64,000 bases of DNA from Nitrososphaeria archaeon. Its GTDB lineage: Archaea > Thermoproteota > Nitrososphaeria > JACIWG01. A model generated the notes under the pieces. It saw only the letters and a program-made list of their open reading frames with translations, was not told the DNA's origin and did no database searches. The stretch covers positions 214,961 to 278,960 of the forward strand of contig JARVJP010000011.1 in NCBI GenBank assembly GCA_029776065.1, in the 5' to 3' direction. Below, in pieces: positions 3,353-64,000 of the stretch. Both the position numbers and the translations under genes were made by a program. How positions within the stretch are numbered: the stretch's first letter is position 1; the number at the start of each line of letters is the position of its first letter.

Positions 3353-4182
3353 AGAAACTTAGTTTCCATGGTTTTCAACTAATACCGGTAAAGGGAAGAG
3401 CGATTCTCCCATTAATTCTTCTTGCACCAATAATCCTTTTTGCAGTCTTTGCATATCAGATCGCTCCTTATAACCCTCTCCAAACTGGTGTTGGTGAATC
3501 TTTATCTCCTCCATCAAGTCGGAATTTTATGGGGACGGATCAGCTTGGTGAAGATATCTTTAGTCAAGTAGTACATGGGTCCAGAGTCGCATTGTATGTT
3601 GGAATTACTTCGTCTTTGATCACGGTCTTTCTTGCCTTAGTAATTGGAACCGTGGCAGGGTATCTTGGAGGAATGGTTGATGAGGTTTTAATGAGGTTCA
3701 CAGACGTGGTGCTTTCGATTCCTTCCTTCATTCTTATCATATTTATAGTTATTCTGTTTGGGAGTTCGATAAATGTAATCACACTCGTGATCGGCGTTGT
3801 TTCATGGCCTTCTATGGCGAGGGTCGTCAGGGCCCGAGTACTTTCATTTAAAGAACAAGAATTTGTTCTAGCTGCTAAAGCCCTAGGAGCTAATCCGCTA
3901 AATGTTATGTTATTCGAGATACTTCCAAACATTTGGCTAGGTATCATTCCTGCAATCACTCTGCAAATAGGAAATGGTATACTTACAGAGGCTGGATTGA
4001 GTTTCCTCGGACTCGGCGATCCTAACGTAGCAAGTTGGGGTAGAATTCTGTATTTGGCAAGTACAGCGATCTATTTAGGTTGTTGGTGGGGTGTGCTCTT
4101 CCCAGGGCTTGCAATCATTGTAACGATAATTTCGTTCAATCTTCTTGGTGATGTGCTAGGTACTTCTCTAAGTCCGAAATGA
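3349..4182 (+). CDS. ABC transporter permease (OppC/DppC-like)
   Basis: Polytopic. EAA-like loop region (LAAKALGANPLNVMLFEILPN). Last gene of the operon. Confidence 0.85.
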   Translation: MKKLSFHGFQLIPVKGRAILPLILLAPIILFAVFAYQIAPYNPLQTGVGESLSPPSSRNFMGTDQLGEDIFSQVVHGSRVALYVGITSSLITVFLALVIGTVAGYLGGMVDEVLMRFTDVVLSIPSFILIIFIVILFGSSINVITLVIGVVSWPSMARVVRARVLSFKEQEFVLAAKALGANPLNVMLFEILPNIWLGIIPAITLQIGNGILTEAGLSFLGLGDPNVASWGRILYLASTAIYLGCWWGVLFPGLAIIVTIISFNLLGDVLGTSLSPK

Positions 4183-21866: not shown

Positions 21867-22820
21867 ATGAGTGATGATAAATCTTCTAGTGGAAGTTTAA
21901 CTTATTTAACTGAAAAATGCCCAAGATGTGGGCGTGCTAAACTAATACTTGATAATGCTCGAGGCGAAATATTCTGTAGCCATTGTGGATTCGTTGTTAG
22001 AGAGAAGCTTGAAGAAGCTGGCCCAGAATGGCGTGCCTTCTCTAAAGAGGAAAAGGAGAGCCGTAGTAGGACTGGTGTTCCATCATCGTTAGCCATGCAT
22101 GATATGGGCCTGTCAACAATCATTAGCCAACTTGATAAAGATGCTTCAGGTAAAAGTATTTCTTCGGCTATGAAGACTACGTTTGACAGGTTGAGAACTT
22201 GGGATGGAAGGAGCCAAGTCCACGAGCCTGTAGACCGTAACCTTAGACAAGCCTTCAGTGAACTCGATAGACTTGCAGATAAGCTAAGTGTGGGCGACGC
22301 TGTAGTTGAACGAGCTGCTTATATCTACAGGCAAGCTCTTGAAAAGGGGTTGGTTAGAGGTCGTTCTATTTCTGCCTTAATCGCTGCGTCACTATACGCT
22401 GCATGTCGAGAAACTGAGACTCCACGTACTCTAAAGGATGTGGGTGCAGCAAGTAACATCAAGAAGAAGGATATTGCAAGATGCTACCGTCTTCTTGTTC
22501 GTGAGTTAGATAAGAAGATGCCTGTTGCCGACCCGCTTAAAACGGTTTCTAGGATCGCTAGCGCTGCTGGGTTATCTGAGAAAACTAAACGTCGAGCTTT
22601 AGACATTATTACTAGGACAAAGGAGAGCCTCTCTTCAGCTGGAAAGGACCCTATGGGCCTCGCGGCAGCTGCCCTCTACGTATCGTGTGTTTTAGAGGGT
22701 GAAAATAAAACACAGAAGGATGTTGCCGAAGCAGCTGGTGTAACTGAAGTAACAATAAGAAATAGGTATAAGGGATTAAGGAACATATTAACACCCGATG
22801 AACTAAGAGTTGTCGAGTGA
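21867..22820 (+). CDS. tfb: Transcription initiation factor IIB (TFB)
   Basis: N-terminal zinc ribbon CPRCG...CSHCG, B-reader/linker, two cyclin-fold repeats. Confidence 0.95.
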   Translation: MSDDKSSSGSLTYLTEKCPRCGRAKLILDNARGEIFCSHCGFVVREKLEEAGPEWRAFSKEEKESRSRTGVPSSLAMHDMGLSTIISQLDKDASGKSISSAMKTTFDRLRTWDGRSQVHEPVDRNLRQAFSELDRLADKLSVGDAVVERAAYIYRQALEKGLVRGRSISALIAASLYAACRETETPRTLKDVGAASNIKKKDIARCYRLLVRELDKKMPVADPLKTVSRIASAAGLSEKTKRRALDIITRTKESLSSAGKDPMGLAAAALYVSCVLEGENKTQKDVAEAAGVTEVTIRNRYKGLRNILTPDELRVVE

Positions 22821-23037
22821 TTTAACCCTATTAGAAGGAGAAGTAATAAATATCATACGTAGAATGAACTATGCTAGTCAAGCAGATATTGTCTTAGCCC
22901 TCAAGCACCGGGCAACGCATGATGATGTTATTAATTGTCTCTCCACGTTGGTCAAGAAGAAGAAGATTAAAAAAATGAGTGTTGGGACTCGAGATAGACC
23001 TGATACCATGCGTATTGTCTACACTATTCTCGATTAG
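22810..23037 (+). CDS. Small hypothetical protein, possible winged-helix DNA-binding protein
   Basis: 75 aa, overlaps tfb stop by 11 nt. Helix-rich basic protein (..GEVINIIRRMNYASQADIVLALKHRATHDDVINCLSTLVKKKKI..). Could be spurious. Confidence 0.35.
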   Translation: MSSDLTLLEGEVINIIRRMNYASQADIVLALKHRATHDDVINCLSTLVKKKKIKKMSVGTRDRPDTMRIVYTILD

Positions 23038-23515
23038 GCTTAAAGCTAGGTACGATCTTTTTGAAATAAGGCATTGCTTCTTCAGTTTCTTCTTTTGTCA
23101 TGAACTGAAATTGGTATTCCCCTTCGTAGGGCGAAGGTTCGCCTATTCTTTGGATGAATTCAATATGCATGAACGGGTCATTTTCTCTTACGGTGATTGG
23201 AGTTCTCTCATTGGAAAGGTTCACTACCTCGAGAGCTAGCCTACCTACAAATCCGCTGTGGACCTTTGCCGCATTTAGGAAGGAAAGTCCTAGTCTACCG
23301 AATCTACTTTTTGCTGTAAGGTGTGCTATGATGTTTGTCGGAAGCATTATTATTTCCTTTGAAATCAGGTTTTTATGTTCAAGATAGTTTAAGACGACGT
23401 TGTCTTTCACTGTTAAGATGTATCCGTCGCCATCCAGTAACTTTTCTTCAAAGGGGTGGATCATACGGTATTCTTTTTGAAGCTTTAGAATCTCGCTTTT
23501 TCCTAGTATGCCCAT
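23024..23515 (-). CDS. dcd: dCTP deaminase / dUTPase-family protein
   Basis: Blocks AHLTAKSRFGRLGLSFLNAAKVHSGFVGRLALEVVNLS and C-terminal YEGEYQFQ align with archaeal Dcd. Confidence 0.8.
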   Translation of the reverse strand: MGILGKSEILKLQKEYRMIHPFEEKLLDGDGYILTVKDNVVLNYLEHKNLISKEIIMLPTNIIAHLTAKSRFGRLGLSFLNAAKVHSGFVGRLALEVVNLSNERTPITVRENDPFMHIEFIQRIGEPSPYEGEYQFQFMTKEETEEAMPYFKKIVPSFKPNRE

Positions 23516-23553
23516 TTACATCCCTATGGAGACATCATTGTAATGGATATAAA

Positions 23554-24534
23554 CTATTGCTCTTTCTTCTTTATTCTTGGCAGCAAGATTTTAGCTCCGT
23601 AATAGAGTATTAGAATTGTTCCTAGTACCAAAACGAACATGTCATTGAAAGTAGATAGATCTAAGTTGTATACATTTTGCTCGAATAAATATATTGAATT
23701 GGTGTAGTAATTGAACGCCCAGTGGACCATTATAGCCGCACCTAGCCCGTAAAACACATAGGCTACTCCAAGCATCAATCCTGCGATTGTGGCTTCAGTA
23801 AACTTTCCTATCTCCCATACCGAACCAGGTGCTATATGCGCAAATCCGAAAAAGAGTGACGATCCAATGATTAGTGGAAGGAATAGACCCCAAACCCTAC
23901 TCCTGAAATTAATGTAATTCTGCGACTTCTTTAACGTGGGCAAGGGGTTGAGTAAGAACTCTATTTTTGAGACGCCTGTTTTCCACCCTCTTATTGTTAA
24001 AAGGGCGAATAAGCCAATAATTGATAATCTGAATCCAATTTCTTCAGATAGAGGTGCATGTGTTATTGTTGCTAGAAGTTTTGCAGAATTGGTTTCAGGT
24101 AGAGTGCCAGATGGTATTCCAACGATAGTTTGGACAAGGTCTATTACAAGTACTAGGACTGCGGTTATTGAGAAGATCGCTATTGACGCAGAAAGGTCGT
24201 TCTTAAAGAAGCTGCTGACCCCTCCTTTATGGCTGTTCTTTAGAACTTTAGCAAGGGTTTTTTCTCCAGAAAATAAGAGGATAGAGAATATTGCGACATA
24301 CATAACCCATTCCGATACGAACTGTTGCTGTATCACTGCGGAAAAGGGGAATACAAGTAAGAACCCAACAATGAAGACATAGTAATAATCGATCTCTCCT
24401 TCTATTTGCTTCCCTTCTTCTGTATTGAAGACGATGTATGGGCCTAATATAAAAGAAAATACAACTGTCGCCACTATGAGCACTATTAGTACGGAAATAA
24501 CCAGTGCCAGAACGCTATTAAGAGTCTTCTCCAA
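23554..24534 (-). CDS. CPBP-family intramembrane metalloprotease (CAAX protease/Abi domain) membrane protein
   Basis: Motif 1 SEEIGFR (EExxxR), motif 2 FxxxH (FGFAHIAPG), motif 3 HWAFN. Multiple TM helices. Confidence 0.8.
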   Translation of the reverse strand: MEKTLNSVLALVISVLIVLIVATVVFSFILGPYIVFNTEEGKQIEGEIDYYYVFIVGFLLVFPFSAVIQQQFVSEWVMYVAIFSILLFSGEKTLAKVLKNSHKGGVSSFFKNDLSASIAIFSITAVLVLVIDLVQTIVGIPSGTLPETNSAKLLATITHAPLSEEIGFRLSIIGLFALLTIRGWKTGVSKIEFLLNPLPTLKKSQNYINFRSRVWGLFLPLIIGSSLFFGFAHIAPGSVWEIGKFTEATIAGLMLGVAYVFYGLGAAIMVHWAFNYYTNSIYLFEQNVYNLDLSTFNDMFVLVLGTILILYYGAKILLPRIKKKEQ

Positions 24535-25281: not shown

Positions 25282-25890
25282 TTGGTGGTCACACTATACG
25301 AGGTATCAAAGTTAGCTTTAGAGCTAGCAGCTTTAGTGGTAACTGTTCTAGCCTTAATGGTTTCTTATGCTGGCTACTCAAAGACTAAAAAATCCGTTTT
25401 TGCGAGACTTTCTCTAGCTTTTATTGGTCTTTCTGTAAATTTTTTTCTAAATCTACTCGCTGACTCACTTTTTATGTTTGAAGTAATCGAAGACCTTTAC
25501 TATATAAAGCTGATTGCCTCTTTTTTCGAAATGGTCGGGTTCTTCTTTCTAGCTTTCTCCCATATGGTAAAAGTGTATCAAGAAAAGAGGTTTGTAGTTG
25601 CCCCTTTGATTATATTTAATCTAAACGCCGCATTCAAGACGTTGTCGATATATTTCATATTCTACGCAACTCTAGAAACAATGATCACATATTCTCGTTC
25701 TAAATCCCGGATTGTACTATCGACAGCTATTGGGCTGTTGGGCTTTGCCACATATTCTATACTAAGTTGGATTGCAGAGTTTGTCGTTGATCCAACAATA
25801 TATCAGGTTTTCTCCTTAATCTTCCAAGTATTTGGGATTTTAGCCTTCTTTGTTCCGATATGGATATATTATAGGGGTGTTAAAACATAG
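25282..25890 (+). CDS. Hypothetical polytopic membrane protein (6-7 TM)
   Basis: Hydrophobicity pattern. Directly abutting a downstream wHTH protein gene. Confidence 0.5.
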   Translation: MVVTLYEVSKLALELAALVVTVLALMVSYAGYSKTKKSVFARLSLAFIGLSVNFFLNLLADSLFMFEVIEDLYYIKLIASFFEMVGFFFLAFSHMVKVYQEKRFVVAPLIIFNLNAAFKTLSIYFIFYATLETMITYSRSKSRIVLSTAIGLLGFATYSILSWIAEFVVDPTIYQVFSLIFQVFGILAFFVPIWIYYRGVKT

Positions 25891-26172
25891 ATGATGAGCT
25901 ACCGTCACCAAGTCCGTATTGTTTCCGATGTTCTTCTAGCGGTTAAAGAGGGACATGAAGAAGGTGTCGGAATAGCTCAACTTATGCATAAGGCAAACAT
26001 ATCATATGTTCGTGTAACAAAGATTTTGAATGAACTAATCTCAGTAGGTTTAATCGAAGAAATCAGGAACGAAAAATCAACTAAGTATAAAATAACCTAT
26101 CTCGGAATAGAGTACCTTAACGAATATGAACGCTTTTCTACGTTCGCAAAAAACTTTGGTCTTGAAATATAA
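25891..26172 (+). CDS. Small winged helix-turn-helix DNA-binding protein
   Basis: 93 aa. ..GVGIAQLMHKANISYVRVTKILNELISVGLIEE.. typical wHTH recognition helix + wing. Confidence 0.55.
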   Translation: MMSYRHQVRIVSDVLLAVKEGHEEGVGIAQLMHKANISYVRVTKILNELISVGLIEEIRNEKSTKYKITYLGIEYLNEYERFSTFAKNFGLEI

Positions 26173-26220
26173 TTCTTCTAGTGCATGTTATGTTCTTAGG
26201 ATTAATAAATTCATCATCGT

Positions 26221-27084
26221 TCATGCTTCTGGCACTACAACCAACGTGACTACTGGCGCCTTCTTTACTGTACCATATTCCTTTTTACCTAGCAAGTTTC
26301 TGAATCTGGGTTTCGATACAGAAAGTAAGAGGATGTCTATATCATTATCTGATATGTAATTTATAACATCTTCTGCTTCCCTTACAGGTAGAATCAGTGG
26401 TGTGAGCGGTCTCCCAACTAGTCCTATGTATTCACCCACACTGCGAGTAAAAACTCTTCCAGCTTTCTTGAATTCTTTTGATTCTGCGACTTCATCTAAA
26501 GGTATAGTGGGTGGGAGCTCGACTATCTTCATAACCCTTATTTCAGCGTCACTGGTTGAAGCCGAGCTGGTGAGTAATGCCGAGAGAAGAATTACATCTT
26601 CAGAGACTGTTTCCTTAAATGTGGCTGCGAGAATACGCTTGAGCACCAGAGGCAGCTTTAATCCGATTTGAGGTGTCTCAACAATAACGACCTTCTTTTT
26701 AGTCTTTCTGACCACCCTATCAGAGACTCTTCCAAAGAATTCAACATAGGTTCTTTCTCTATGCGCGGGCATAACGATGTATTCGTAATCTTCTTTATTT
26801 GATTCATCGACTATAGAGGATGCTATCAAATTATGTGAGAATGTTTCACGGAGTGTTTTCTCCTTTAATTCATATTTTACCTTTAGCTCTTTGGCTAACT
26901 TCTCGAGTTCGATTGTGAAGTCTATCTCTTCTTTCTCATCAGGTGCTCTCACATGGAAGATTGTGATAGGGCTGCCACAGCATTCTGAAATGTAAAAGGC
27001 TATTTTAACAGCGTTCATTTCATATGGTGTATAAGATAGGGGGAGTAGAAGCCTGCCAGGATGCCAGGTTAGATCCCTACTCAT
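26221..27084 (-). CDS. Universal stress protein (tandem UspA domains)
   Basis: Two UspA-like alpha/beta domains, C-terminal ..ILLLSVS...G..TV.KKAPVVTLVVVP. 8-nt overlap with downstream APC permease. Confidence 0.7.
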   Translation of the reverse strand: MSRDLTWHPGRLLLPLSYTPYEMNAVKIAFYISECCGSPITIFHVRAPDEKEEIDFTIELEKLAKELKVKYELKEKTLRETFSHNLIASSIVDESNKEDYEYIVMPAHRERTYVEFFGRVSDRVVRKTKKKVVIVETPQIGLKLPLVLKRILAATFKETVSEDVILLSALLTSSASTSDAEIRVMKIVELPPTIPLDEVAESKEFKKAGRVFTRSVGEYIGLVGRPLTPLILPVREAEDVINYISDNDIDILLLSVSKPRFRNLLGKKEYGTVKKAPVVTLVVVPEA

Positions 27085-35564: not shown

Positions 35565-37496
35565 GTGCAAAAAATGAGAGGAATTTCTCGCACAATATTA
35601 GCTGTTGCAGTGATCGTCTTAGTAGTTATAGTAGGTGCTGTTGCGGTCTTAATGCAACCTCCTACACCAACTATTACCACAACAACCACTACCACCACTG
35701 CTACTACTACAACTGCTACTACTTCCACGACAATCACAACAACTACCGCTACCACCACTACAGCCACTACTACAACTGTCACAACTTCGCCAACAACTAC
35801 GACTACAACGATAAAGCCTCCAAACCCTGACACACTTGTTCAAGAAACGATCGGTGAGCCTGATTACGTTGACCCAGCTGTAGACTATGAAACCGCTGGG
35901 GGAGAGATCATAATGAACGTATACGAAACATTGATGTGGTATGATGGTGAAAGTGCTACAAAGGTGATTCCATGGCTCGCAGAAAGTTACCAGATGTCTG
36001 CTGATGGCAAGAGTTACACATTCACACTCAGAAAGGGTATCAAGTTCCATGATGGTACGCCATTTAATGCGAAAGCTGTCAACTATTCTATTGTAAGAGC
36101 AATACTAATAGCTGACCCTAATGGACCAGCGTGGATGCTCGGGCCATTAAAGGGCGCAGAAGAGTTGATGTATAGTATCCAAGATGGTGTTGCAACACAG
36201 GATGATGTAGCTGCATGGCTTGCCTCTAAGCCAATAGAAGTACTTGACGAGTATACAGTTAGAATGAACCTAGACTACCCGTACTCTCCTTGGCTTTCTG
36301 TTCTAGCATATACTGTTACAGCGATAGTCTCCCCAACTTATGTTGAGGCACATGGAGGTATCGTAGTCGGCGAGCATAATGAATGGATGGATAGGCATGC
36401 TGAAGCAGGAACAGGGCCTTATATTCTAAAGTCCTGGGAACCAAATGTCCTGACATTGGTCAGGAACGACGCGTACTGGGGTGGACCCAAAGGCAATATC
36501 AAACCTGTTCTGAAGACCGTGATCATAAAAGGTGTTGCTGATGCGAATACTAGACTATTAGATCTATTAAAGGGGGACGCTGACTTTGCCTACGTGCCTG
36601 TAACTCACATAGACCAACTGATAGATATGACTACTTGGTTTAACGAAAAGAAGATCGTGGTCAAGCCAGAAGTAGCTGACAAGGTCCGAGTAACAGGACC
36701 ATATGAGACGTTCAACCTGGACTTTATCGCCTTCAACCTGAATATCAAAGATGAGATAACAAAACAACCTGCAGCCTTCCAACCATTTAGGGATATAAGA
36801 GTGCGAAAAGCCTTCGTATATGCTTTCGACATAGACCAATACCTTAGAGATGTGGTGAAATATTTCGCTATACAACCAAATGGACCCGTACCCAAAGGAA
36901 TGTTCGGATACAATCCAAGTATACCTACACAACAGTATAATTTAACAAAGGCTAAAGAACTCCTACTACAAGCTGGTCCAGATCTTGGATTTAGCCCACA
37001 GAATCCTAAGACCATGACATTATACTACAACACAGGAAACTTAGCCCGTGAAAAAGCAGCCCTTCTAATCGCAAGCGCGATCAACTCACTTAACGTAGGT
37101 TTGGTGATTCAAGTCGTACCACTTGATTGGCCAGCCTTCCTTGCAAAGCAGAGGGCAAGAGCGTTACCATTCTTCGTTCTAGGTTGGGCACCAGACTATG
37201 TTGATCCAGATGACTACCTTATACCATTCGGTCACGGTCAGAAAGGCACTTTCCCAATAGTAATTGGGTACAATAACCCTGAATTAAACACCTTGATTGA
37301 GCAACAAGCAGTTGAAGCAGATCCTGTGAAGAGGCAAGCGATAATAGACCAGATAGTGAACACTTTGAACTCAGAGTACATCTACCTTTGGACCGCTCAA
37401 GCAACTGCACGCCATGTTGAAAGAACATGGGTAAAAGGTTGGTACTATAACCCAGCTTATCCAGGCAACTATTTTGCAACAATATCTAAAGGGTGA
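35565..37496 (+). CDS. ABC transporter substrate-binding protein, family 5 (oligopeptide/dipeptide), N-terminally anchored with poly-Thr linker
   Basis: N-terminal TM, ~50-aa Thr-rich low-complexity linker, then full SBP_bac_5-like domain. Followed by permease and ATPase genes. Confidence 0.9.
   Translation: MQKMRGISRTILAVAVIVLVVIVGAVAVLMQPPTPTITTTTTTTTATTTTATTSTTITTTTATTTTATTTTVTTSPTTTTTTIKPPNPDTLVQETIGEPDYVDPAVDYETAGGEIIMNVYETLMWYDGESATKVIPWLAESYQMSADGKSYTFTLRKGIKFHDGTPFNAKAVNYSIVRAILIADPNGPAWMLGPLKGAEELMYSIQDGVATQDDVAAWLASKPIEVLDEYTVRMNLDYPYSPWLSVLAYTVTAIVSPTYVEAHGGIVVGEHNEWMDRHAEAGTGPYILKSWEPNVLTLVRNDAYWGGPKGNIKPVLKTVIIKGVADANTRLLDLLKGDADFAYVPVTHIDQLIDMTTWFNEKKIVVKPEVADKVRVTGPYETFNLDFIAFNLNIKDEITKQPAAFQPFRDIRVRKAFVYAFDIDQYLRDVVKYFAIQPNGPVPKGMFGYNPSIPTQQYNLTKAKELLLQAGPDLGFSPQNPKTMTLYYNTGNLAREKAALLIASAINSLNVGLVIQVVPLDWPAFLAKQRARALPFFVLGWAPDYVDPDDYLIPFGHGQKGTFPIVIGYNNPELNTLIEQQAVEADPVKRQAIIDQIVNTLNSEYIYLWTAQATARHVERTWVKGWYYNPAYPGNYFATISKG
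35690..35815 (+). repeat. Low-complexity ACN-codon (poly-Thr) coding repeat within SBP gene
   Basis: Run of ACT/ACA/ACC/GCT codons encoding TTTTTTTTATTTTATTSTTITTTTATTTTATTTTVTTSPTTTTTT. Generates spurious antisense ORFs (35552-35833, 35649-36050). Confidence 0.9.
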
Positions 37497-37524
37497 TTAC
37501 ACCCTTTTCCTCTTTTTCTTTTAG

Positions 37525-38565
37525 GTGATTTTTTTGAAATTATATGAATATTCTATAAGGAGAATATTCTTGTTGATTTTTGTGTTATTAGGTGTAACCA
37601 TTCTTACCTTTTATTTGTCAAGGATAGTTTTGAACCCTCTAGGTGCATACGTCACAGAGAGAACTAGACCTGAAGCAATACCTGCTATTGAAAAGAGGCT
37701 TGGTTTAGATAAACCTTTCTATATCCAATATATAATATATTTGCAAGACTTGGTGACTTTCAACTGGGGTTGGTCTAGGGTAGCGCATATGCCTGTTATT
37801 GAAGCTCTTTTTTATCGTTTTCCCGCAACCGTTGAGCTTGCAATAGCATCATTTATTATCATAATTCTGGTCGGTGTTCCTTTAGGTATTATAAGTGCAT
37901 TAAAGAATAACTCTGTTGTAGATCACGCTATTAGGATTTTCTCTTTAACGGGTATATCTATTCCGGTCTTCTGGCTCGCTTTGACATTGCAATATTCGTT
38001 CTCATACCTTCCAAAGGTCGCTGGCCTACCTAGTCTTCCTTCAAATGGGCGGGTTGACGCCCTTTTATATCAACAGTATCCTGTTAATAGGATAACAGGC
38101 TTGATGATATTCGATTCACTGATACAAGGCAACTTTATAATAGCATCTGACGCTCTGCTACATCTAATACTTCCGGCCATGACATTGGCTTTTCTGAGTA
38201 TAGGGGCTGTAACAAGGGTTGCGCGTTCAAGTATGCTCGAAGTCCTACGCCAAGACTACATATCAACAGCTAGAGCCTACGGGTTACCTGAACGTATGGT
38301 GATATACAAATACGCTCTAAAAAACGCTATGATCCCTGTAACGACGTTAAGCGGTCTTTTGTTCGGCGGGTTATTAGCTGGGGCTATAATAACTGAAAGC
38401 ATTTTCGCGTTCCCAGGTATGGGCCAGCTGACAGTATTCGCCATATCTTCAAACGATTCATACACTATTATGGCGTTTACGGTCTTAGCCTCATTCATTT
38501 ATGTGTTAATAAATCTCTTAGTGGATATAGTGTACGCTAAGCTCGATCCAAGAATTAAGTATTAA
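37525..38565 (+). CDS. ABC transporter permease (OppB-like)
   Basis: Polytopic. Conserved EAA-like region ..STARAYGLPERMVIYKYALKNAMIPV... Confidence 0.85.
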   Translation: MIFLKLYEYSIRRIFLLIFVLLGVTILTFYLSRIVLNPLGAYVTERTRPEAIPAIEKRLGLDKPFYIQYIIYLQDLVTFNWGWSRVAHMPVIEALFYRFPATVELAIASFIIIILVGVPLGIISALKNNSVVDHAIRIFSLTGISIPVFWLALTLQYSFSYLPKVAGLPSLPSNGRVDALLYQQYPVNRITGLMIFDSLIQGNFIIASDALLHLILPAMTLAFLSIGAVTRVARSSMLEVLRQDYISTARAYGLPERMVIYKYALKNAMIPVTTLSGLLFGGLLAGAIITESIFAFPGMGQLTVFAISSNDSYTIMAFTVLASFIYVLINLLVDIVYAKLDPRIKY

Positions 38566-38566
38566 G

Positions 38567-39445
38567 GTGATGCCATTGAAAAGTAGACAAACCAGAATGT
38601 TTTTGATGGACCTAAAATTTGCTTTAACTCTGCTAAGAAAGAACAAACTAGTAGTTTCTGGTTTTGTTATGGTGCTCTTCTTCATTTTCCTAGCTCTTTT
38701 CGGCGACTTTATTGTCGACCCAAACATCGCGAAGAGCGTTGATTACCCAAACGCTCTCAAGCCTCCTTCATGGGAGCATCCCTTTGGTACGGATGATAAT
38801 GGTAGAGATATAGTGGCCATGGTAGTACTCGCTGCTAAATACGATTTAGCTATAGCACTATCTGTTATACTGGCGTCAATTGGCGTAGGAATACTGGTCG
38901 GCTCGGTGTCTGGTTACTTTGGAGGAATTATTGATGAAGTAATCATGAGAATCACTGATATATTTTTGGCTTTCCCGGGATTGGTTTTAGCAATGGCGAT
39001 CGCCACTGTTTTAGGAAGGTCCTTTACAAACTTGATGCTAGCTTTGATCATAGTCTGGTGGTCAGGATATGCTAGAATCATGAGAGGTCAATTTATTTCT
39101 GAACGAGAAAAACCATACGTAGCTGCTGCTAAAATACTTAGCGTGCCAAGTTGGAGGATAATATTCAGGCACATTCTCCCAAACGCTATATACCCTATGC
39201 TCGTTGTTTTAACAATGGATATGGGTGGTGTGATATTGACTGCAGCGGGGCTGAGCTTTATTGGCCTAGGTCCATCACCTTTTGAGCCAGAGTGGGGTTC
39301 TCTTGCTTCCAGAGGCGCGGTATACCTCTTTCAAGCGCCTTGGATAATATTCTTCCCAGGTATAATGATCTTATTTGCATGTTTAGGCTTTAATCTTGTA
39401 GGTGATGGGTTAAGAGACGTGTTAGACCCGAGGCTTAGAAGGTGA
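38567..39445 (+). CDS. ABC transporter permease (OppC-like)
   Basis: Polytopic. ..AAAKILSVPSWRIIFRHILPNA.. EAA-like loop. Confidence 0.85.
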   Translation: MMPLKSRQTRMFLMDLKFALTLLRKNKLVVSGFVMVLFFIFLALFGDFIVDPNIAKSVDYPNALKPPSWEHPFGTDDNGRDIVAMVVLAAKYDLAIALSVILASIGVGILVGSVSGYFGGIIDEVIMRITDIFLAFPGLVLAMAIATVLGRSFTNLMLALIIVWWSGYARIMRGQFISEREKPYVAAAKILSVPSWRIIFRHILPNAIYPMLVVLTMDMGGVILTAAGLSFIGLGPSPFEPEWGSLASRGAVYLFQAPWIIFFPGIMILFACLGFNLVGDGLRDVLDPRLRR

Positions 39446-39449
39446 AAAG

Positions 39450-40433
39450 ATGCTGCTCAGTGTAAGGGACTTGATAGTAGAATTCTACACCTATAGAGGT
39501 ATAGTCCACGCGTTAAACGGTGTAAGTTTTGATCTAGATAAGGGAGAAGTTTTAGGACTCGCTGGTGAAACTGGGAGTGGAAAATCTGTAACTGCCTTCT
39601 CTATACAAAGATTACTTCCGGCGAATGCTAAGATTGTGTCAGGCAAGATCGTATTTGATGGAGTAGACCTGCTCGAGCTAAGTGAGGAAAAGATGCGTGA
39701 GATTAGAGGTCAAAGAATTGCAACGATCTTCCAAGACCCTCATACCTACCTTAACCCCGTCTTTAAGATAGAAAGACAGTTTTTAGATGTTCTAAAGTAT
39801 AATGACCCAGAAATCAAGGCTTTAGAGAATAAAAAGGAGGCTGAGAGAATCGCTTTCGAGAAGGCTGTTGAAATGTTGAAAAAGGTCAAGATGCCTGCCC
39901 CTGAACGCGTTCTTAAGATGTATCCTCACGAACTCAGTGGTGGGATGAAGCAAAGAGTCCTACTTGCTATGGCTTACTCTCTGACTCCAGACCTAATAAT
40001 AGCTGACGAGGCCACAACTGCTCTAGATGTAACTATACAAGCTCAAGTCTTGGAAATAATGAAAGAGCTTCAGAAAGAGAAGAACTTGTCCGTGCTACTC
40101 ATCACCCACGATTTAGGTGTTATTGCTGAAAATTGTCAAAAGGCTGCGATAATGTACGCTGGGAGAGTGGTTGAAATTGGGGACGTAAAGAAAGTTCTTA
40201 TTTCTCCAAAGCATCCTTATACACAGGGGTTACTTAAGGCACTACCTAGAACAGATAAGGAAGTTGAACTGGTAGGTATTCCTGGGACGGTGCCAGATTT
40301 GGTGAACCCACCAACCGGTTGTGCATTTAACTTGCGATGCCCCTATGCTAAAGAAATTTGTAGAACGAAGGTTCCTCCTTACACGTTAGAGGAGGGTTCT
40401 ACGGTTGCATGCTATCTTTATGGTGGGAAGTAA
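39450..40433 (+). CDS. Oligopeptide ABC transporter ATP-binding protein (OppD-like)
   Basis: GETGSGKS Walker A, LSGGMKQRV signature, LIIADEATTALD Walker B. Confidence 0.9.
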   Translation: MLLSVRDLIVEFYTYRGIVHALNGVSFDLDKGEVLGLAGETGSGKSVTAFSIQRLLPANAKIVSGKIVFDGVDLLELSEEKMREIRGQRIATIFQDPHTYLNPVFKIERQFLDVLKYNDPEIKALENKKEAERIAFEKAVEMLKKVKMPAPERVLKMYPHELSGGMKQRVLLAMAYSLTPDLIIADEATTALDVTIQAQVLEIMKELQKEKNLSVLLITHDLGVIAENCQKAAIMYAGRVVEIGDVKKVLISPKHPYTQGLLKALPRTDKEVELVGIPGTVPDLVNPPTGCAFNLRCPYAKEICRTKVPPYTLEEGSTVACYLYGGK

Positions 40434-41398
40434 TGGTGACTGAAGTAGTAAAAATAGAAAATCTTACAAAACACTTCCCTATAGTAGGAGGGATTCTTCA
40501 AAAGACAATAGGGTACGTCTACGCTGTGAACGATGTAACAATGTCCGTTCGCGAAGGTGAAACACATGGCCTAGTAGGTGAATCTGGTAGCGGGAAGACA
40601 ACTGTTGGTAGAATTATCGTGAAACTAACTAACCCAACATCGGGTAGAATTATCTTTGATGGCGAAGACATCACTAGAGTAAAAGGTGAAGCGCTAAGAA
40701 ACTATAGAAGAAAGGTCCAAATGGTCTTTCAGGATCCTTACGCATCTATGAACCCTAGGATGACCGTGAAGAGTGCCTTACTTGAAGTTATGAAGATTCA
40801 TTCGATGCATAAGGGCTCAGAGTATGAATATGCAACTAAGTTGATGGAGAGAGTCGGAATGAGTGAAGAACACCTCTATAGGTATCCACACGAGCTCTCC
40901 GGTGGTCAAAGACAGAGGGTTGTAATAGCAAGGGCTCTCAGTGTAGAACCAAAGTTCATCGTGTTAGATGAGCCTACAGCATCGTTAGATGTGTCTGTTC
41001 AAGCCCAAGTCCTTGATCTTTTAAAGGAATTACAGAAGCAGTATAGTTACTCTTACCTACTGATTACCCACAATTTAGCTATAATCAAGTATATAAGTCA
41101 CAGAACTACTGTGATGTATAGAGGGGTATGGGTTGAAACTGCACCCACACAAGAGCTCTTCAAAAACCCTCAACATCCATACACCATCGCTTTAATGTCG
41201 GCTGTACCTGTACCCGATCCAACATTGAGAAGAGAAAAGATAATCCTGAAAGGGGAACCACCGAATCCGATCGAAAAGGTAGTAGCTTGCCCGTTCCAAG
41301 ATAGATGCCCCTATGTTATGGACGTCTGTAGAGAAAAGATGCCGCCAGACACCGATCTAGGAAGTGAACATTTGGTGAGATGTTGGCTAAGAGCGTGA
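40409..41398 (+). CDS. Oligopeptide ABC transporter ATP-binding protein (OppF-like)
   Basis: [29 protein letters not shown]. 25-nt overlap with upstream ATPase gene. Confidence 0.9.
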
Positions 41399-42311: not shown

Positions 42312-42689
42312 ATGCGTGATTGTCATTCCGAAGTCTTGAGACGGAGAGCCCTAGGTCTTCTCAATAACGCTAGAGATAACTTTCAGAGGGAGGAGTATGA
42401 TTTAGTATTATTTCACGTAGAGCAGTTTCTTCAGCTGTACCTAAAACGCATTTTATATGAGAAGATAGGCACTTATATAAAAACCCACTCCCTAACATCA
42501 CTCTTAAAGGAGCTTCAGAAGGTTTACGAAGACAAAGCCTTATTCGAGTTATACAATTCAAATATAGAAACTATAAATCTACTCGAAGACGCGTATATAA
42601 CGTCCAGGTACCTTCCAAGAGAATACGATAAAGAGGTAGCCGAGAAAGTGTTAAAGTTTGCGGAACAGACCTTGGAGGTGTTGCGATGA
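42312..42689 (+). CDS. HEPN-domain protein (HepT-like toxin component)
   Basis: All-alpha ~125 aa, HEPN-family ..EDAYITSRYLPREY.. region. Directly followed and overlapped by an MNT gene. Confidence 0.6.
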   Translation: MRDCHSEVLRRRALGLLNNARDNFQREEYDLVLFHVEQFLQLYLKRILYEKIGTYIKTHSLTSLLKELQKVYEDKALFELYNSNIETINLLEDAYITSRYLPREYDKEVAEKVLKFAEQTLEVLR

Positions 42690-43039
42690 GCATAAGAACC
42701 GAAGTGGATGTACAGCTCGAAATCTTGAGTGCCTTCAAAAAGTACTATGAAAATGTAAACCATTATGTTAATAAGATTAAAGCCCTAGTTAGGAAGTACG
42801 ATCCCTCAGCAAGGGTTATTTTGTTTGGGAGCTATGTTAGAGGAAATATGGGGCCTGACAGCGATATTGACGTACTCCTGATCACAAGGCTTGCGAGTGA
42901 TGTGAAAGAGAGAGTTAGACTGAGAATAGAGATTAAAAGGGCAATAGGCGATCTAACACCCTTCGAAATACACATTGTGACAGAAGAAGAATACAAGAGC
43001 TGGTATAAGAAGTTTATAGATCAACATGTAGAGGTCTAG
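42686..43039 (+). CDS. Minimal nucleotidyltransferase (MNT/MntA-like antitoxin component)
   Basis: GS-x(9-13)-DxD motif: LFGSYVRGNMGPDSDIDVLL. 4-nt overlap with HEPN gene. Confidence 0.8.
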   Translation: MSIRTEVDVQLEILSAFKKYYENVNHYVNKIKALVRKYDPSARVILFGSYVRGNMGPDSDIDVLLITRLASDVKERVRLRIEIKRAIGDLTPFEIHIVTEEEYKSWYKKFIDQHVEV

Positions 43040-46056: not shown

Positions 46057-46280
46057 CCAAGTATTTTCATGGCAACGATTACGATATTTTATGAAGACCC
46101 TCTTCTAGCTATCTCTTTGGTTGAAAAGAAAGGTCATTATAATATTGCTTTTTGGTCGCTTGAAACCTGGCTACAAAGGAAATGTATCAAGGAATGAGGG
46201 GAAACATTAGTTGAGGTTAAATGTCACCATTGCCTTTATAAAGGAGCCACAAGTCGGGCATTACCGAAGATGCTTAGAAC

Positions 46281-47141
46281 TTGAAGAACCTAAAGAACTC
46301 AATAATGCTTTTGGCTGTGATCCTAATATGGGGTGCCAACTGGGTGAACATGAAAGTAGGTCTTTATTATACTACACCGTTAAATTACCTATTCCAAAGG
46401 TTCTTCTTTTCAAGTTTCATGATAGCACCGTTTCTTCTCTTCGCTAAAAACGGGTTCAAGAGAGCCCCCAAAGTATACGCAAATGTCGTCATATTATGCA
46501 TTATCTACGCGTTCAGTGTTACCTTCTTAATGATCGGATTAGAGCATGAGAGTGCCGGCATAAGTTCGGTGGTAACATTTACGCAGCCACTGTTCGTCTT
46601 CGCTTTGTCAGCCATCTTTTTGAGGAACGAAATCACAAAAGTTAGAGTTATAGGTGTTCTGATCGGATTTGGGGGCATAGCAATGATATACATTGAGAAG
46701 ATTGGGGGTCTAGAATATACTACAATGTCGATCGTCTTTTTGTTGGCAAGCGCCTTTCTCTGGGCTGTCACAATAGTCCATTATAAGATAATCTCCGATA
46801 AAGTTCATCCTTACTGGATAAGCTTCTTTCAAGTTGCGATCGGTTCTATCATAGTCTACCCATTCGCCTTCTGGACGGGAGGTGTCGTATTCGTATCCGA
46901 TCTACCATACATCTTTTCTTTAGTGTATGTGACGGTCCTGTCGACTGTGGTAGCGTTCTTTCTATGGTTTTACCTTCTAAGGAGCGAAGATGCTGCAAAA
47001 GTGTCTTCTTCAAGCCTTATGATCCCTGTAGTTGCTCTAGTTTCTGGCAATTTGTTACTCGGGGAGATGATCAATTTTTCTCAGATGGTGGGTGTCATGA
47101 TGGTTTTAACAGGTGTCTATCTTGTCAACAGAAGAGACTAG
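46281..47141 (+). CDS. EamA/DMT-superfamily transporter
   Basis: 10-TM, two EamA repeats. Confidence 0.75.
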   Translation: MKNLKNSIMLLAVILIWGANWVNMKVGLYYTTPLNYLFQRFFFSSFMIAPFLLFAKNGFKRAPKVYANVVILCIIYAFSVTFLMIGLEHESAGISSVVTFTQPLFVFALSAIFLRNEITKVRVIGVLIGFGGIAMIYIEKIGGLEYTTMSIVFLLASAFLWAVTIVHYKIISDKVHPYWISFFQVAIGSIIVYPFAFWTGGVVFVSDLPYIFSLVYVTVLSTVVAFFLWFYLLRSEDAAKVSSSSLMIPVVALVSGNLLLGEMINFSQMVGVMMVLTGVYLVNRRD

Positions 47142-51986: not shown

Positions 51987-52466
51987 TTGAACTCTAAAAA
52001 GGAAGTCTTCGAAGAAGACGAGACGGCTGTAAAAAGTATCAAATATAGTACAACATATAACCTTTCTGCTGCAGTCTTAATATGGCTCTTCGGGGTTCTG
52101 GTATTTATCCCTATAGCGGACACAATTAACGTTCAAACAAGACTTTTTGTAAATCTGATTGTATTTATTCCCTTTACAATTCTATTACTCAAAGCTGTTC
52201 CAAGAGTTAAAAGATTGTTAGAGGTTTTTGCAGTAGTTTTAGCTAAGAAATTTAAATTTATGGAAGTCAAAGAGGATGAACAGATTATAGTCTTCAAAAA
52301 GTTTCTTCACATGATGTTTATTATAGTCGTATATTTGTTTTATTTTCCTTTTTTGAATAATTTTCATCCTGCGATAAATGGTATAGTACTTATTGTTGCT
52401 CTACTTTGGAACTTCTTTTTACTCTTTGGAATATTACAAATAGCACTCAACAGTAAAATGAAATAA
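51987..52466 (+). CDS. Hypothetical membrane protein (paralog 2 of tandem pair)
   Basis: VLIWLFGVLVFIPIADT vs ILIWLFGEMIFLPIAKS in upstream gene. Similar topology. Confidence 0.5.
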   Translation: MNSKKEVFEEDETAVKSIKYSTTYNLSAAVLIWLFGVLVFIPIADTINVQTRLFVNLIVFIPFTILLLKAVPRVKRLLEVFAVVLAKKFKFMEVKEDEQIIVFKKFLHMMFIIVVYLFYFPFLNNFHPAINGIVLIVALLWNFFLLFGILQIALNSKMK

Positions 52467-52478
52467 AGGTGAGTTGAA

Positions 52479-53453
52479 TTGTTTGAAGAACTTGGTCTTT
52501 TAGGTAATGCTATAGTCTTACTATTGTCATTTCTCGTCTTAAGTAAAGCAAGCGATGTAGTTGTAGAATACGCAGAGAAACTTGCGTTTGTGACCGGCAT
52601 TTCAGCTACAACAATAGGCTTTTTGCTAATTTCTTTTTCCACATCTTTGCCAGAGTTCTCAATAGCGCTATCTGTGCTGATCACAGGTGAAGGAATAGGT
52701 TTACCCTTTGGTAACGTCTTAGGTGCGAACATTACCAACATAACCCTAATATTGGGTATTTGTTATCTGGTATTATTCCTAAAAAAAGGGAACTCTAACT
52801 CCATAAATCAGATTCAAAAAGAAGAAATCAACAGTTTAAATTTTGGTCTTTTCATTGCATCCACGATCCCTTTAGCCTTACTCTATCTAGGAGAAGCTAG
52901 CAAGTTTATTGGCATAATACTTGTATTTGTATTCATTTTGTCCTCCTTCCAAATTTCAGTTTCCGAGAAGGAAAAAAGTGAGAAGGCATCAAAAGAAGAA
53001 AGAAAGAAGATTAAAAAATATGCCCTGCTCATATTTATAGGTATTATTGGCGTACTTATGTGCGGGGCACTTATTGTTGACTCGGCAACCTACATCGCGT
53101 TAGAATTAGGTGTGCCTGAAGTTATAATTGGGGCGACAATCGTGGCGTTTGGAACTACTGTCCCTGAGTTATCTGTGAACATATCCGCTGTGCGGAAAGG
53201 AAAGATAGGGATTATGCTTGGAAACGTTATTGGGAGTTGTTTTATCAATATAACATGTATCTTAGGTCTCGCATTAATAGCCTTACCATTCGCTGTAAGC
53301 TTATCTGCGTTTACGAACCTAGTACTATTCTCTATAATAGCTAAGTTGTTTTTATGGTACTTTCTCTCAGGATTAAAAATGACATGGAAAGAGGGTATAA
53401 TCTTCCTATTTCTGTATGGTCTGTTCTTAGCTACTAGTTTTAGTTCTTATTAA
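52479..53453 (+). CDS. Ca2+/cation antiporter (CaCA family, YrbG-like Na+/Ca2+ exchanger)
   Basis: Alpha-1 (..GISATTIGFLLISFSTSLPEFSIAL..) and alpha-2 (..GVPEVIIGATIVAFGTTVPELSVNI..) repeats. Confidence 0.85.
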   Translation: MFEELGLLGNAIVLLLSFLVLSKASDVVVEYAEKLAFVTGISATTIGFLLISFSTSLPEFSIALSVLITGEGIGLPFGNVLGANITNITLILGICYLVLFLKKGNSNSINQIQKEEINSLNFGLFIASTIPLALLYLGEASKFIGIILVFVFILSSFQISVSEKEKSEKASKEERKKIKKYALLIFIGIIGVLMCGALIVDSATYIALELGVPEVIIGATIVAFGTTVPELSVNISAVRKGKIGIMLGNVIGSCFINITCILGLALIALPFAVSLSAFTNLVLFSIIAKLFLWYFLSGLKMTWKEGIIFLFLYGLFLATSFSSY

Positions 53454-60756: not shown

Positions 60757-61565
60757 TTATTTTACAGTCTTTAGAGCTCTATCCCTTGTAGGTTCCATTA
60801 AAAGGTAGATAATAGAAAAAAAGAAACCTCCTTCTGATATAAGAACAACTAAAGTCCTTAGAACATCTAGCTTGTTAAATAGATAAAGAAAAATAATTGG
60901 GCCAAATAGAGCTGTTATAGAGTAAAAGACTGAAGCGAGGAGAGCTGCTGTATGAGGTCCATTAATTATTGCAACACTTCTAACGCTCTTAACTCTATCA
61001 CCTTCCATGTCAGCTATGCCTTGGGTTATTTCCCTCCCTAAGTTCGAGAAAAAACTCAAAGTAAATAGTGTAGCTACCGTAAGACCGATAGAATTCGTAG
61101 TTGACAAGAAACCAAAGATAAACGTGATAGAGACGCAATAGGCTACCATTATGTTTCCTAGTAAATCATAACCCTTATCATATAAACTGTAGAGCACTGA
61201 TAAAATAAAAGCAATGCCAATAACATCGCTAACAAGTTTATCATAATGGAAAATAAAGAACCCAATGCAAATAATGTTAAGCCAAAGTAAAGCGTCGCCT
61301 TCTTTGAAACTAAACCACATGGGATGGGCCTATTAGGTCTATTTATACGATCGATTTCAACATCTAAGTAATCATTTATTACAAAGGACGATGCAGTTAG
61401 AAAAACTGAAGTTGAAAATGGAAAGAAGCTTAATGGTAACTCAGGTAATGCCTTTAGAGGAATCACTTGACCGGCAAATGTGACCAATCCTATAAGAATG
61501 GTGCCTAACGGTCGAATCAATCGAATATAAGCAATGAACGAAGGACTATTTAAGCCATATTTCAA
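60757..61565 (-). pseudogene. UbiA-family prenyltransferase of the DGGGP-synthase type, split by a -1 frameshift in a T homopolymer (pseudogene or sequencing error)
   Basis: ORF 61158-61565 encodes the N-terminal half with motif NDYLDVEIDRINRPNRPIP. ORF 60757-61320 encodes the C-terminal half with DMEGDRVKSVRSVAI. Frames switch around 61201-61210. Adding one T restores ...LLALLLFLSVLYSLYDK.... Confidence 0.75.
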
Positions 61566-61800
61566 ACTTAAACCATTTAAATAATATTAACTTATCTATA
61601 TGTCTCTTATTAAAAACTTACAGAACGTCTTACTTATCTCCTATGATATGAGTATAAACTTGGGCGCAAGATATCAATAAGAACTTTGGTCAAATCAATA
61701 TAGTTTCGGTTGTCTAAAACATCGCTACGTTATACTTGTGAAAGCCTCTATTCTTATATCAAAAAGCTTAAAAACCTACTACAAGGAGAGATTAAATTAC

Positions 61801-62718
61801 ATGACTAGAAAAAAGTTTTTGATTTTAACCATAATCATGATAACAACTCTAACTTATACTATGGGACAAGCCTGTGCAGCACCCCTTCCATCTAAAGTGA
61901 AGGCTGGTGTGTGGATAACAAGCATAGACAAAGTAGACCTGGCTGCTGGAACTTATTCGATAGATTTTTATCTTTGGTTCATCTACGATGATGCTCCTCC
62001 TAACTTTGAATTCATCAACGGCGCACCAACTAGAATAGAGAAAACAGTCGAAAGGGAAGGTTACGTTGAATATAGGGTTAAGGCAACATTCGTCCAACAA
62101 TACGATTTCAAGAACTTCCCATTCGATACTCAAAACTTGGATATAATGATTGAAGACAAAACACAGAATATAACTTCGTTAGAATTGATCCCGGATTCTG
62201 AGCAAAGCGGTTTGGATTCACAAGCCTACGTTGTCGGATGGCAACCAAAGGAGTTTACATATCAAAGTTATGTTCACGAATACCCAGGTGAAAACTACTC
62301 CAGATTAGTCTTCACAGTGTCAATACAAAGAGAAATTTTTCCAGTCTTTATGAAAAACTTTGTCCCAATTACTTTGATCACGTTGATAAGCCTGCTATCG
62401 TTTGCAGTTAGCATACAGAACTATTCACAGAGGATATCAATAGGTATAACGACATTGTTCTCGGCAGTTGCATACCATTTGGCAACACTTGGAAGCTTAC
62501 CCCCGCTTTCATATCTAACTCTATTCGATAGAGTTATGTTAGCCATCTACTCCCTATTCCTCTATAACATAGGTGTAAGTGTGCAAGGAATGAGGCTAGT
62601 CGACAAAAAGCAAATAGACAAGGCCATTAGTTTTGAAGATAAAGCGCAAAAACTCCTACCCGTAGTTACTTTGTTCTTGATCATACTCTACACCGTACTA
62701 TTGGCGCCTTTTATATGA
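61801..62718 (+). CDS. Prokaryotic pentameric ligand-gated ion channel homolog (GLIC/ELIC-like Cys-loop receptor family); start at ATG 61801 preferred
   Basis: Signal peptide MTRKKFLILTIIMITTLTYTMGQA. Beta-rich ectodomain with FPFDTQNLDIMIE (cf. GLIC YPFDSQTLHIYL). VGWQPKEFT (cf. GLIC TGWDIESFT). Four TM helices M1-M4. Confidence 0.8.
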   Translation: MTRKKFLILTIIMITTLTYTMGQACAAPLPSKVKAGVWITSIDKVDLAAGTYSIDFYLWFIYDDAPPNFEFINGAPTRIEKTVEREGYVEYRVKATFVQQYDFKNFPFDTQNLDIMIEDKTQNITSLELIPDSEQSGLDSQAYVVGWQPKEFTYQSYVHEYPGENYSRLVFTVSIQREIFPVFMKNFVPITLITLISLLSFAVSIQNYSQRISIGITTLFSAVAYHLATLGSLPPLSYLTLFDRVMLAIYSLFLYNIGVSVQGMRLVDKKQIDKAISFEDKAQKLLPVVTLFLIILYTVLLAPFI

Positions 62719-62821: not shown

Positions 62822-63430
62822 ATGTCTGTCAAGAGGCAAGTCGTATTCTTTGAGAAACCTGGGCCAGAAAACACAATATCTGTAGTTGATGCGGTTAAGG
62901 ATAGACTTGGTCTAGGCGATTTAAGGAAAGTTATTGTACCTGTCACTACAGGTAAAACTGCTAAGATGTTCTCTGAAAGATTAGGTGACTTAGCTGACAT
63001 TGTGACCATATCTGAAAGCGAACTAATATCTATCTATAAGAAGAAAGATGTTAAACATGTAAAAGGCAGTTTCCTAGACGAATTATTGCATGAACGATTA
63101 AGAGATTTGGATAGAACTATCTCTGAAAGACTGAGGCGCGAAATCTTCGATATCGTCTTATTGCCCTTTTTCGGGGAGAAATGGGACGCAATTAAGGAGA
63201 CACTTTACATCTTTGGCCAAGGTATGAAAGTAGCTATAGAAGTATCCATAGCATCAGTTGAACTTAATAAAACAGAACCGTACCTCAAAGTGATTGCTGT
63301 AGGTGGAACAGAAAGTGGTGCCGACACAGCGGTAGTGATAAGAACCGCCCCTCAAAGACAAGCATTGGGGAAGAATAAAGAAAGACGACTCATAGTTGAA
63401 GAAATATTATGCATGCCTAGAGAGAAATAA
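62822..63430 (+). CDS. Pyruvate-kinase C-terminal (alpha/beta) domain-like protein
   Basis: ..RKVIVPVTTGKTAKMFSERLGDLADIVTIS.. resembles the PK C-terminal domain block. Confidence 0.45.
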   Translation: MSVKRQVVFFEKPGPENTISVVDAVKDRLGLGDLRKVIVPVTTGKTAKMFSERLGDLADIVTISESELISIYKKKDVKHVKGSFLDELLHERLRDLDRTISERLRREIFDIVLLPFFGEKWDAIKETLYIFGQGMKVAIEVSIASVELNKTEPYLKVIAVGGTESGADTAVVIRTAPQRQALGKNKERRLIVEEILCMPREK

Positions 63431-63544
63431 AGTTTACTTTGTGAAATTTTACAGTTAAATGCATTACACTCTAAAATGCTCGTGCTAAGACGTTACACAG
63501 CTAAGATTAAGTTTGCGAATTCATTTTCATTGAATTATCTGACA

Positions 63545-63562
63545 GAAAGTATTTAAATTAGA
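63545..63562 (+). promoter_or_regulatory. TATA-like promoter element for leaderless heliorhodopsin-like gene
   Basis: AAAGTATTTAAATTA centred ~24 nt upstream of ATG 63578. Confidence 0.35.
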
Positions 63563-63577
63563 TCTGTTTATTTTTTT

Positions 63578-64000
63578 ATGACCTTTAGGAAAAAGCAAGA
63601 AATAATTTCTAGTTCTCCAATATCATTCCGTTATTTAAGACGTCTTAACATAGCAGCAGGCTTTCTACATCTCTCCCAAGGAATAATAATGCTAATCTTA
63701 GGCTCTCTTCTGAAATGGGAGCGTAGCATATACACATTTTACCTAAATATTACTATAATTCAAGGTCCTCCCGTAAAAATAGAATTGGTTCCAAATCCAC
63801 AAGTTATTTTCACTGTGAGCTACTTAGGAGCTATAGTCGCCTCATTTCCACTAATATCTGCTATAGCCCATTTTATGATCGCTTTCGTAGTAAATGACAA
63901 GTACAATGAGAACTTGAAGAAAGGTATGAACCCTTTCCGATGGTATGAATATGCATTTTCCAGCTCTATTATGATAGTGTTGATCGCTCTATTCCTAGGG
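63578..64000 (+). CDS. Heliorhodopsin-like 7-TM protein, N-terminal ~141 aa (3'-partial, runs off window)
   Basis: Not in ORF track because no stop before window end. Translation has 3 hydrophobic helices, His31 and His98, and NPFRWYEYAFSSSIM with Glu124/Ser128. This mirrors the His23/His82/Glu108/Ser112 spacing I recall for heliorhodopsins. Confidence 0.55.
   Translation, partial: MTFRKKQEIISSSPISFRYLRRLNIAAGFLHLSQGIIMLILGSLLKWERSIYTFYLNITIIQGPPVKIELVPNPQVIFTVSYLGAIVASFPLISAIAHFMIAFVVNDKYNENLKKGMNPFRWYEYAFSSSIMIVLIALFLG

Follow-up and report, generated by a model that had tools for sequence, protein, structure and literature searches.

In the view of Bulzu et al. (PMC8612252), heliorhodopsins (HeRs) are sensory switches related to photo-oxidative stress. 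Three characterized HeRs have partner proteins, namely AbHeR with glutamine synthetase (PMC9529153), TfHeR with photolyase (PMC9769723), and OcHeR with an ABC transporter (PMC11109279), and V2HeR3 is a viral HeR that transports protons (PMC9448325). Among archaea, HeRs of Bathyarchaeota (Bathy-6/-8) were reported previously (Pan et al., 2020; PMC7110647). The best solved relative of the HeR examined in this work is TaHeR from Thermoplasmatales archaeon SG8-52-1 (PDB 6IS6, 7U55, and 7CLJ), with ∼36% identity in the structural alignment. The founding member of the family is 48C12 (PDB 6SU3, 6SU4, and 6UH3).

The HeR gene at the 3' edge of our window (the whole 64-kb stretch of DNA that was analyzed) encodes a protein that aligns with both. 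With TaHeR it shares the TM3 motif NP-x-RW-x-EY-x-x-S, the His pair, the TM7 Lys motif "LS-x-VAK," and a spacing of 26 residues between the TM2 His and the counterion Glu; unlike TaHeR, it has an EF loop longer by 4 residues, an extended AB loop (see below), and a frameshift in the EF loop. The hosts also differ, a hot-spring Nitrososphaeria for the window HeR and a marine-sediment Thermoplasmatales for TaHeR. All six key residues are common to the window HeR and 48C12; 48C12 is actinobacterial, more distant than TaHeR, and shorter in the N-terminal and AB-loop regions. The window HeR falls in the same clade as the Bathyarchaeia HeRs and carries their N-terminal extension ERQEII-x-SPISF-x-YLKRFN. 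Bathyarchaeia-type HeRs are often found beside SOUL, Pyridox_ox_2, DUF1722, AhpC/TSA, or UvdE genes, whereas the window locus has none of these, and none of the partner genes of AbHeR, TfHeR, and OcHeR adjoins the window HeR.

A sequence-only reading of the window had proposed that a heliorhodopsin-like gene opens with an ATG at 63578 and runs off the window end. The ORF is present, its translation is identical to the one given, and the frame stays open for 141 of the 273 codons of the gene; it was absent from the ORF list because ORFs running off the window end are left out. The residue numbers quoted for H31, H98, and the R121-W122-Y123-E124-Y125-A126-F127-S128 block are all correct. The 141-aa fragment matched Pfam PF18761 (Heliorhodopsin) with E=7.6e-34 (117.6 bits, cutoff 26.7; profile positions 1-114 of 242) and scored 127 bits against the NCBIfam equivalog NF038020 "heliorhodopsin HeR" (cutoff 100). 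All the solved structures matched by the sequence of this fragment are heliorhodopsins, the best one being TaHeR (6is6, E=2.4e-14). We concluded that the ORF at the window edge is the 5' part of a genuine HeR gene, the match being far beyond chance; the proposed family assignment is borne out by the above-cutoff PF18761 and NF038020 matches and by the alignments to 48C12 and TaHeR. Table 1 lists the features of the window discussed in this work.

Table 1. Positions of the HeR gene, its neighbors, and other features in the 64-kb window
Feature	Position	Strand	Remarks
Oligopeptide/dipeptide ABC transporter cluster	404-4182	+	
Oligopeptide/dipeptide ABC transporter cluster	35565-41398	+	separate from the cluster above
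HEPN domain gene and nucleotidyltransferase gene	42312-43039	+	4-nt overlap
UbiA-family prenyltransferase, frameshifted	60757..61565	-	2 kb upstream of HeR; 1-nt deletion in T run
GLIC-like pentameric ligand-gated ion channel homologue	61738..62718	+	GLIC chains E∼1e-14 to 3e-17; NCBI start 61801, 305 aa
202-aa soluble protein	62822..63430	+	between channel gene and HeR; no hydrophobic segments found
Purine-rich stretch then TATA-like element (AGAAAG TATTTAAATT)	63544..63559	+	19-34 nt upstream of HeR ATG
Heliorhodopsin gene 5' part (codons 1-141)	63578..64000	+	basic N-terminus, TM1 (H31), AB beta-hairpin, TM2 (H98), TM3 (E124, S128)

An identical protein is found in the public record as MEM3403141.1 (P0001, 214 aa), named "MAG: heliorhodopsin HeR [Nitrososphaeria archaeon]" by NCBI. 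It is encoded on the 796-kb contig JAVZCQ010000001.1 of GCA_038874315.1, and the last 10.4 kb of the window is the start of its locus (L001). JAVZCQ is the MAG DRTY-6_201705_bins_76 from a Tengchong hot spring, which is 99% complete in 11 scaffolds with 40% GC (Qi et al., 2024; PMC11094006). In GTDB this MAG belongs to Thermoproteota, Nitrososphaeria, order JACIWG01, an order that is enriched in acidic springs (Qi et al., 2024; PMC11094006). The family is a known one and the gene is already labeled HeR in NCBI; the sole feature specific to the window copy is the frameshift described next.

The JAVZCQ contig gives the sequence past the window end. A 1-nt deletion is located 624 nt into the HeR gene, at window-equivalent position ∼64201 (JAVZCQ010000001.1 ∼222,177). 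The 0 frame then reaches a stop codon at window-equivalent 64220-64222, which makes the 214-aa ORF; TM6-TM7 and K258 are encoded in the -1 frame, which extends to window-equivalent ∼64398 (the HeR gene occupies 10001-10821 of L001). The overlap of the two frames is just 34 nt. At the end of the 214-aa product, 8 residues (LQHLST before the stop) are out of frame, and the -1 frame runs on as PPTFVYLILF...YIILSFVAKTILAWLVFVGVFSPF to its own stop. Two genes of 214 and 58 aa are called in the public record; both match PF18761, and the 58-aa one begins about at the stop codon of the other. In the relatives, the deletion site corresponds to a conserved Pro-Pro pair in the EF loop encoded by CCN CCN. 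A Nitrososphaeria relative, in locus L013, has GGAACCAACCCACCA, and the window genome has GGAACCAACCTCCA at the same spot; the window genome therefore lacks one C in the EF loop.

The downstream sequence had been expected to complete seven TM helices and to supply a Lys in helix 7. This expectation failed for the 214-aa ORF, which has five TM helices and no such Lys, and held for the DNA, in which TM6-TM7 and the Lys are found directly downstream in the -1 frame. The lack of a single uninterrupted ORF for the full 7-TM protein is a lesion of the window copy, not a family-level difference. Among 162 loci of relatives from genomes and metagenomes, the HeR gene is intact in one frame in 155, and in the other seven it is interrupted by a contig end or an N gap; an internal frameshift was found in none of the 162. 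The missing C in the Pro-Pro pair would stop translation after 214 residues and would leave a product of five helices devoid of the retinal-binding Lys. A 214-aa product without TM6-TM7 and the Lys cannot be a photoreceptor, and the HeR copy as sequenced is frameshifted and probably inactive.

To describe the encoded protein we used a 273-aa translation obtained by adding back one C at the frameshift (the repaired protein). It matched PF18761 over profile positions 1-241 of 242 (E=2e-90, 302.8 bits) and NF038020 over positions 1-244 of 244 (330.5 bits), and aligned end to end with TaHeR (6is6, E=1.1e-55, residues 13-272) and 48C12 (6su3, E=4e-44). Seven hydrophobic segments are present in the repaired protein, and all seven TM helices are encoded at the locus. 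H31, H98, E124, S128, S254, and K258 align with H23, H80, E107, S111, S237, and K241 of 48C12, respectively. The residue-level proposals made from the window alone, that the spacing of E124, S128, and H98 is that of the HeR counterion, the Ser at +4, and a conserved His, and that H31 is the second His, were all right, as the four residues fall on 48C12 E107, S111, H80, and H23. K258 lies in the TM7 motif "SFVAK" at the position of the Schiff-base Lys; it is encoded in the DNA, but past the frameshift, and the annotated 214-aa product lacks it.

The N-terminus is basic, as had been noted from the window sequence, with six K/R and one acidic residue in residues 1-22. In the repaired protein, the N-terminus and the BC, DE, and FG loops contain 15 K+R in total, vs. 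three in the AB, CD, and EF loops and the C-terminus. Given this difference between the two membrane faces, the positive-inside rule predicts an inverted topology with the N-terminus in the cytoplasm. The long beta-hairpin-like AB loop seen in the translation was confirmed in two ways: the loop is 9 residues longer than that of TaHeR in the phmmer alignment, and it forms a hairpin in the AlphaFold2 model. It aligns to the AB loops of TaHeR and 48C12, with an insertion. The AlphaFold2 model of the 214-aa product (pLDDT 84) contains five TM helices and the AB beta-hairpin with strands 49-61 and 67-80 (pLDDT ∼80); the tail, residues 207-214, is disordered (pLDDT<50). The best structural matches of this model are HeR structures.

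Pattern scanning of genomes gave at least 599 matches, at least 583 of which encode a HeR relative. Among the matches listed, the closest relatives are 65-79% identical, have ∼274 codons, and come mostly from Bathyarchaeia MAGs; a protein-based scan of JGI metagenomes found no relative above 79% identity. The clade also occurs in Methanobacteriaceae, Hadarchaeota, Conexivisphaerales, and Nitrososphaerales. We concluded that the window HeR belongs to an archaeal HeR clade that is common in Bathyarchaeia. A gene for a SOUL haem-binding protein adjoins HeR in 24 of the 83 genome loci, mostly as a divergent upstream gene at a median distance of 190 nt (loci L004-L083; e.g., L018 11602-12117, PF04832 E=5e-40), a link that has no mention in the main paper on HeR gene context (PMC8612252). 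Other recurrent neighbors in the 83 loci are Pyridox_ox_2 (13 loci), 2-thiouracil desulfurase/DUF1722 (9), DUF6512 (8), AhpC/TSA peroxiredoxin (8), and UvdE (5).

Several of the relatives depart from the consensus in their own ways. One JGI metagenome relative with 77% identity (P0030) has Ala in place of the TM3 counterion Glu (RWYAYAFSSS), and its Schiff base would be without the usual counterion. The C-terminal parts of three other JGI proteins (P0003, P0006, and P0007) depart from the consensus after ALFLG, CISGG, and GVWD, respectively, in a frameshift-like manner; the tail of P0003 corresponds to the +1 frame of HeR, and the three may be broken copies as well or sequencing errors. The "partial" HeR P0015 (L002, CP070649.1) was considered as a sign of a recurrent split gene or an intron, and this was rejected: it ends at a 100-N scaffold gap (L002 6433-6532), just past the GVWD motif that closes TM3, and the L002 "chromosome" consists of joined contigs. 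P0026 (L003, CP070767.1), a second "partial" HeR on a megabase "chromosome" record, also stops directly after the GVWD motif.

The gene two positions upstream of HeR had been read as a ligand-gated channel, and it is indeed a homologue of such channels, with matches to GLIC chains. The GLIC match covers residues 100-320, and the N-terminal ∼100 residues match nothing. The protein matched Neur_chan_LBD with E=1.7e-7 (31.3 vs. cutoff 26); the matches to the TM-domain model and to the NCBIfam models (LIC/LGIC_1) were below the cutoffs. The 202-aa protein encoded between channel and HeR had no match in Pfam or NCBIfam. The UbiA-family gene on the opposite strand is related to archaeal lipid-synthesis enzymes and is split into overlapping ORFs of 135 and 187 aa, which match UbiA profile positions 5-105 and 75-240; after repair, the protein matched PRK12884 with 197 bits (positions 6-257 of 279) as well as DGGGP-synthase-like models, all below the cutoffs. 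The ∼84 kb inspected, next to which the genome has another ∼1.6 Mb, showed no genes for making retinal or carotenoids.

Elsewhere in the window, the components recognized in the two ABC transporter clusters are SBP_bac_5, two BPD_transp_1 permeases, and two ABC_tran/oligo_HPY ATPases. The overlapping HEPN (E=1.7e-26) and nucleotidyltransferase (E=1.5e-15) genes look like a HEPN/MNT toxin-antitoxin pair. An Rfam scan of the 64-kb window gave no matches.

We consider it likely that the HeR frameshift is a real and recent inactivating mutation that is fixed or dominant in the population. In the main competing explanation, the MAG contains a consensus or assembly error, the gene is intact, and the cell makes a normal 273-aa HeR; we regard this as unlikely, though well ahead of the other alternatives. 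The sequence past the shift is undegraded, as an error would leave it: the -1 frame is free of stops for 65 codons, all key residues are kept, and identity to the relatives is 80.6% in the out-of-frame C-terminal part, vs. 69.4% in the N-terminal part. In an intact control the C- and N-terminal identities were 82.4 and 77.2%, the same pattern. This absence of decay fits a very recent event and equally an artefact. The second 1-nt deletion, in the nearby UbiA gene, might also reflect a consensus of poor local quality, e.g., owing to strain heterogeneity, and there may be a minority or majority allele mix at the deletion site.

The sequencing data speak against an error, and the lack of internal frameshifts in the 162 loci of relatives also counts toward a real lesion. 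The MAG was assembled from Illumina HiSeq 4000 2x150 reads by SPAdes --careful (BioProject PRJNA544494; PMC11770067), so that the frameshift cannot stem from a homopolymer error of long reads, and indel errors in runs of 2-5 bases are rare with such reads and assembly. A second assembly (Logan), possibly from the same reads, repeats exactly the same 214-aa HeR product and the same truncated UbiA fragment. Widespread frameshifts or poor assembly were also ruled out: over the ∼84 kb inspected, UbiA is the only other frameshifted gene and gene lengths are otherwise normal. Four same-strand overlapping ORF pairs (25282-26359, 46211-47141, 22810-23613, and 51987-53453) were considered as frameshifts and found to be separate genes or shadow ORFs. 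That two short homopolymers no more than 3 kb apart should each have lost 1 nt, with ∼75 other genes that look intact, is odd under either explanation. An exact-pattern scan of JGI metagenomes for the intact allele, allowing CC or CCN, gave no match.

Of much lower standing is a more far-reaching view, in which the HeR and UbiA frameshifts record the loss of a light-response module in real time while the pool DRTY-6 acidified, or in which the intact HeR is a light-dependent regulator of the GLIC-like channel, a pairing unseen elsewhere; we hold this to be very doubtful.

It is more improbable still that the frameshift is bypassed or tolerated, either by programmed -1 frameshifting or by assembly of the TM1-5 and TM6-7 pieces into a split rhodopsin. 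The perfectly preserved C-terminal frame would suit such a device, as would the 58-aa ORF called at the stop codon of the 214-aa ORF, and bacteriorhodopsin can be reconstituted in vitro from helix fragments. Against it, the 58-aa call depends on ATT as the start codon, and a start at the first ATG (M230) would leave out TM6. A slippery heptamer of the X_XXY_YYZ type was not found in the 34-nt overlap window, and the 121 nt beginning at the site show no more folding than shuffled sequences (z=+1.35), i.e., there is no stable downstream RNA structure; on these two grounds, programmed frameshifting found no support. The split arrangement is used by none of the 162 relatives and is therefore not a conserved recoding device.

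Adjacency to the ligand-gated channel had been given as a reason for interest in this HeR, and this part of the sequence-only reading did not hold up. Homologues of the channel and of the 202-aa protein are absent within 6-8 kb on either side of HeR in all 162 loci of relatives. A tblastn search of these loci for a conserved neighborhood (channel, 202-aa protein, UbiA, deoxyhypusine synthase, and others) gave only isolated weak matches, and this candidate was dropped. The HeR gene also has a TATA-like element of its own at 63550-63559, inside the 147-nt spacer that separates it from the 202-aa gene; together with the purine-rich stretch before it, this is a candidate archaeal BRE/TATA promoter, which may give a leaderless or near-leaderless HeR transcript. 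With the neighbors absent from the 162 loci and the TATA-like element ahead of HeR, the adjacency cannot be taken to show that the genes are functionally linked. That an intact HeR regulates the channel by light, in parallel to HeRs acting on neighbor-encoded proteins (the glutamine synthetase, photolyase, and ABC transporter cited above being precedents), is the least credible of the readings: the two genes lie on the same strand with 860 nt and one gene separating them, but the intergenic gaps are 103 nt (channel to 202-aa gene) and 147 nt, the pairing does not recur, and HeR is broken here while the channel gene is intact.

The reading that we prefer, and rate as fairly likely when taken as a whole, is that of a genuine HeR gene that is a very recent pseudogene or null allele in the dominant population, without a demonstrable link to the channel. 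In its intact form the gene would encode a 273-aa, seven-helix membrane protein with the N-terminus in the cytoplasm. By homology, K258 in TM7 would bind all-trans retinal as a protonated Schiff base, with E124 in TM3 as the counterion and S128, S254, H31, and H98 around it. Judging from characterized HeRs, the intact copy would have a slow photocycle and would serve as a light sensor or a regulator of a partner protein rather than as an ion pump.

The main value of this work is a correct annotation, and the MAG copy should be checked against the reads before it is counted among functional photoreceptors. As a one-off, the HeR-channel adjacency gives no clue to heliorhodopsin function. The repaired hot-spring HeR might be modestly interesting as a thermostable HeR for biophysics. 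For the family, the SOUL, peroxiredoxin, UvdE, and DUF1722 neighbors of the relatives fit the published idea of a light switch connected to photo-oxidative and UV stress.
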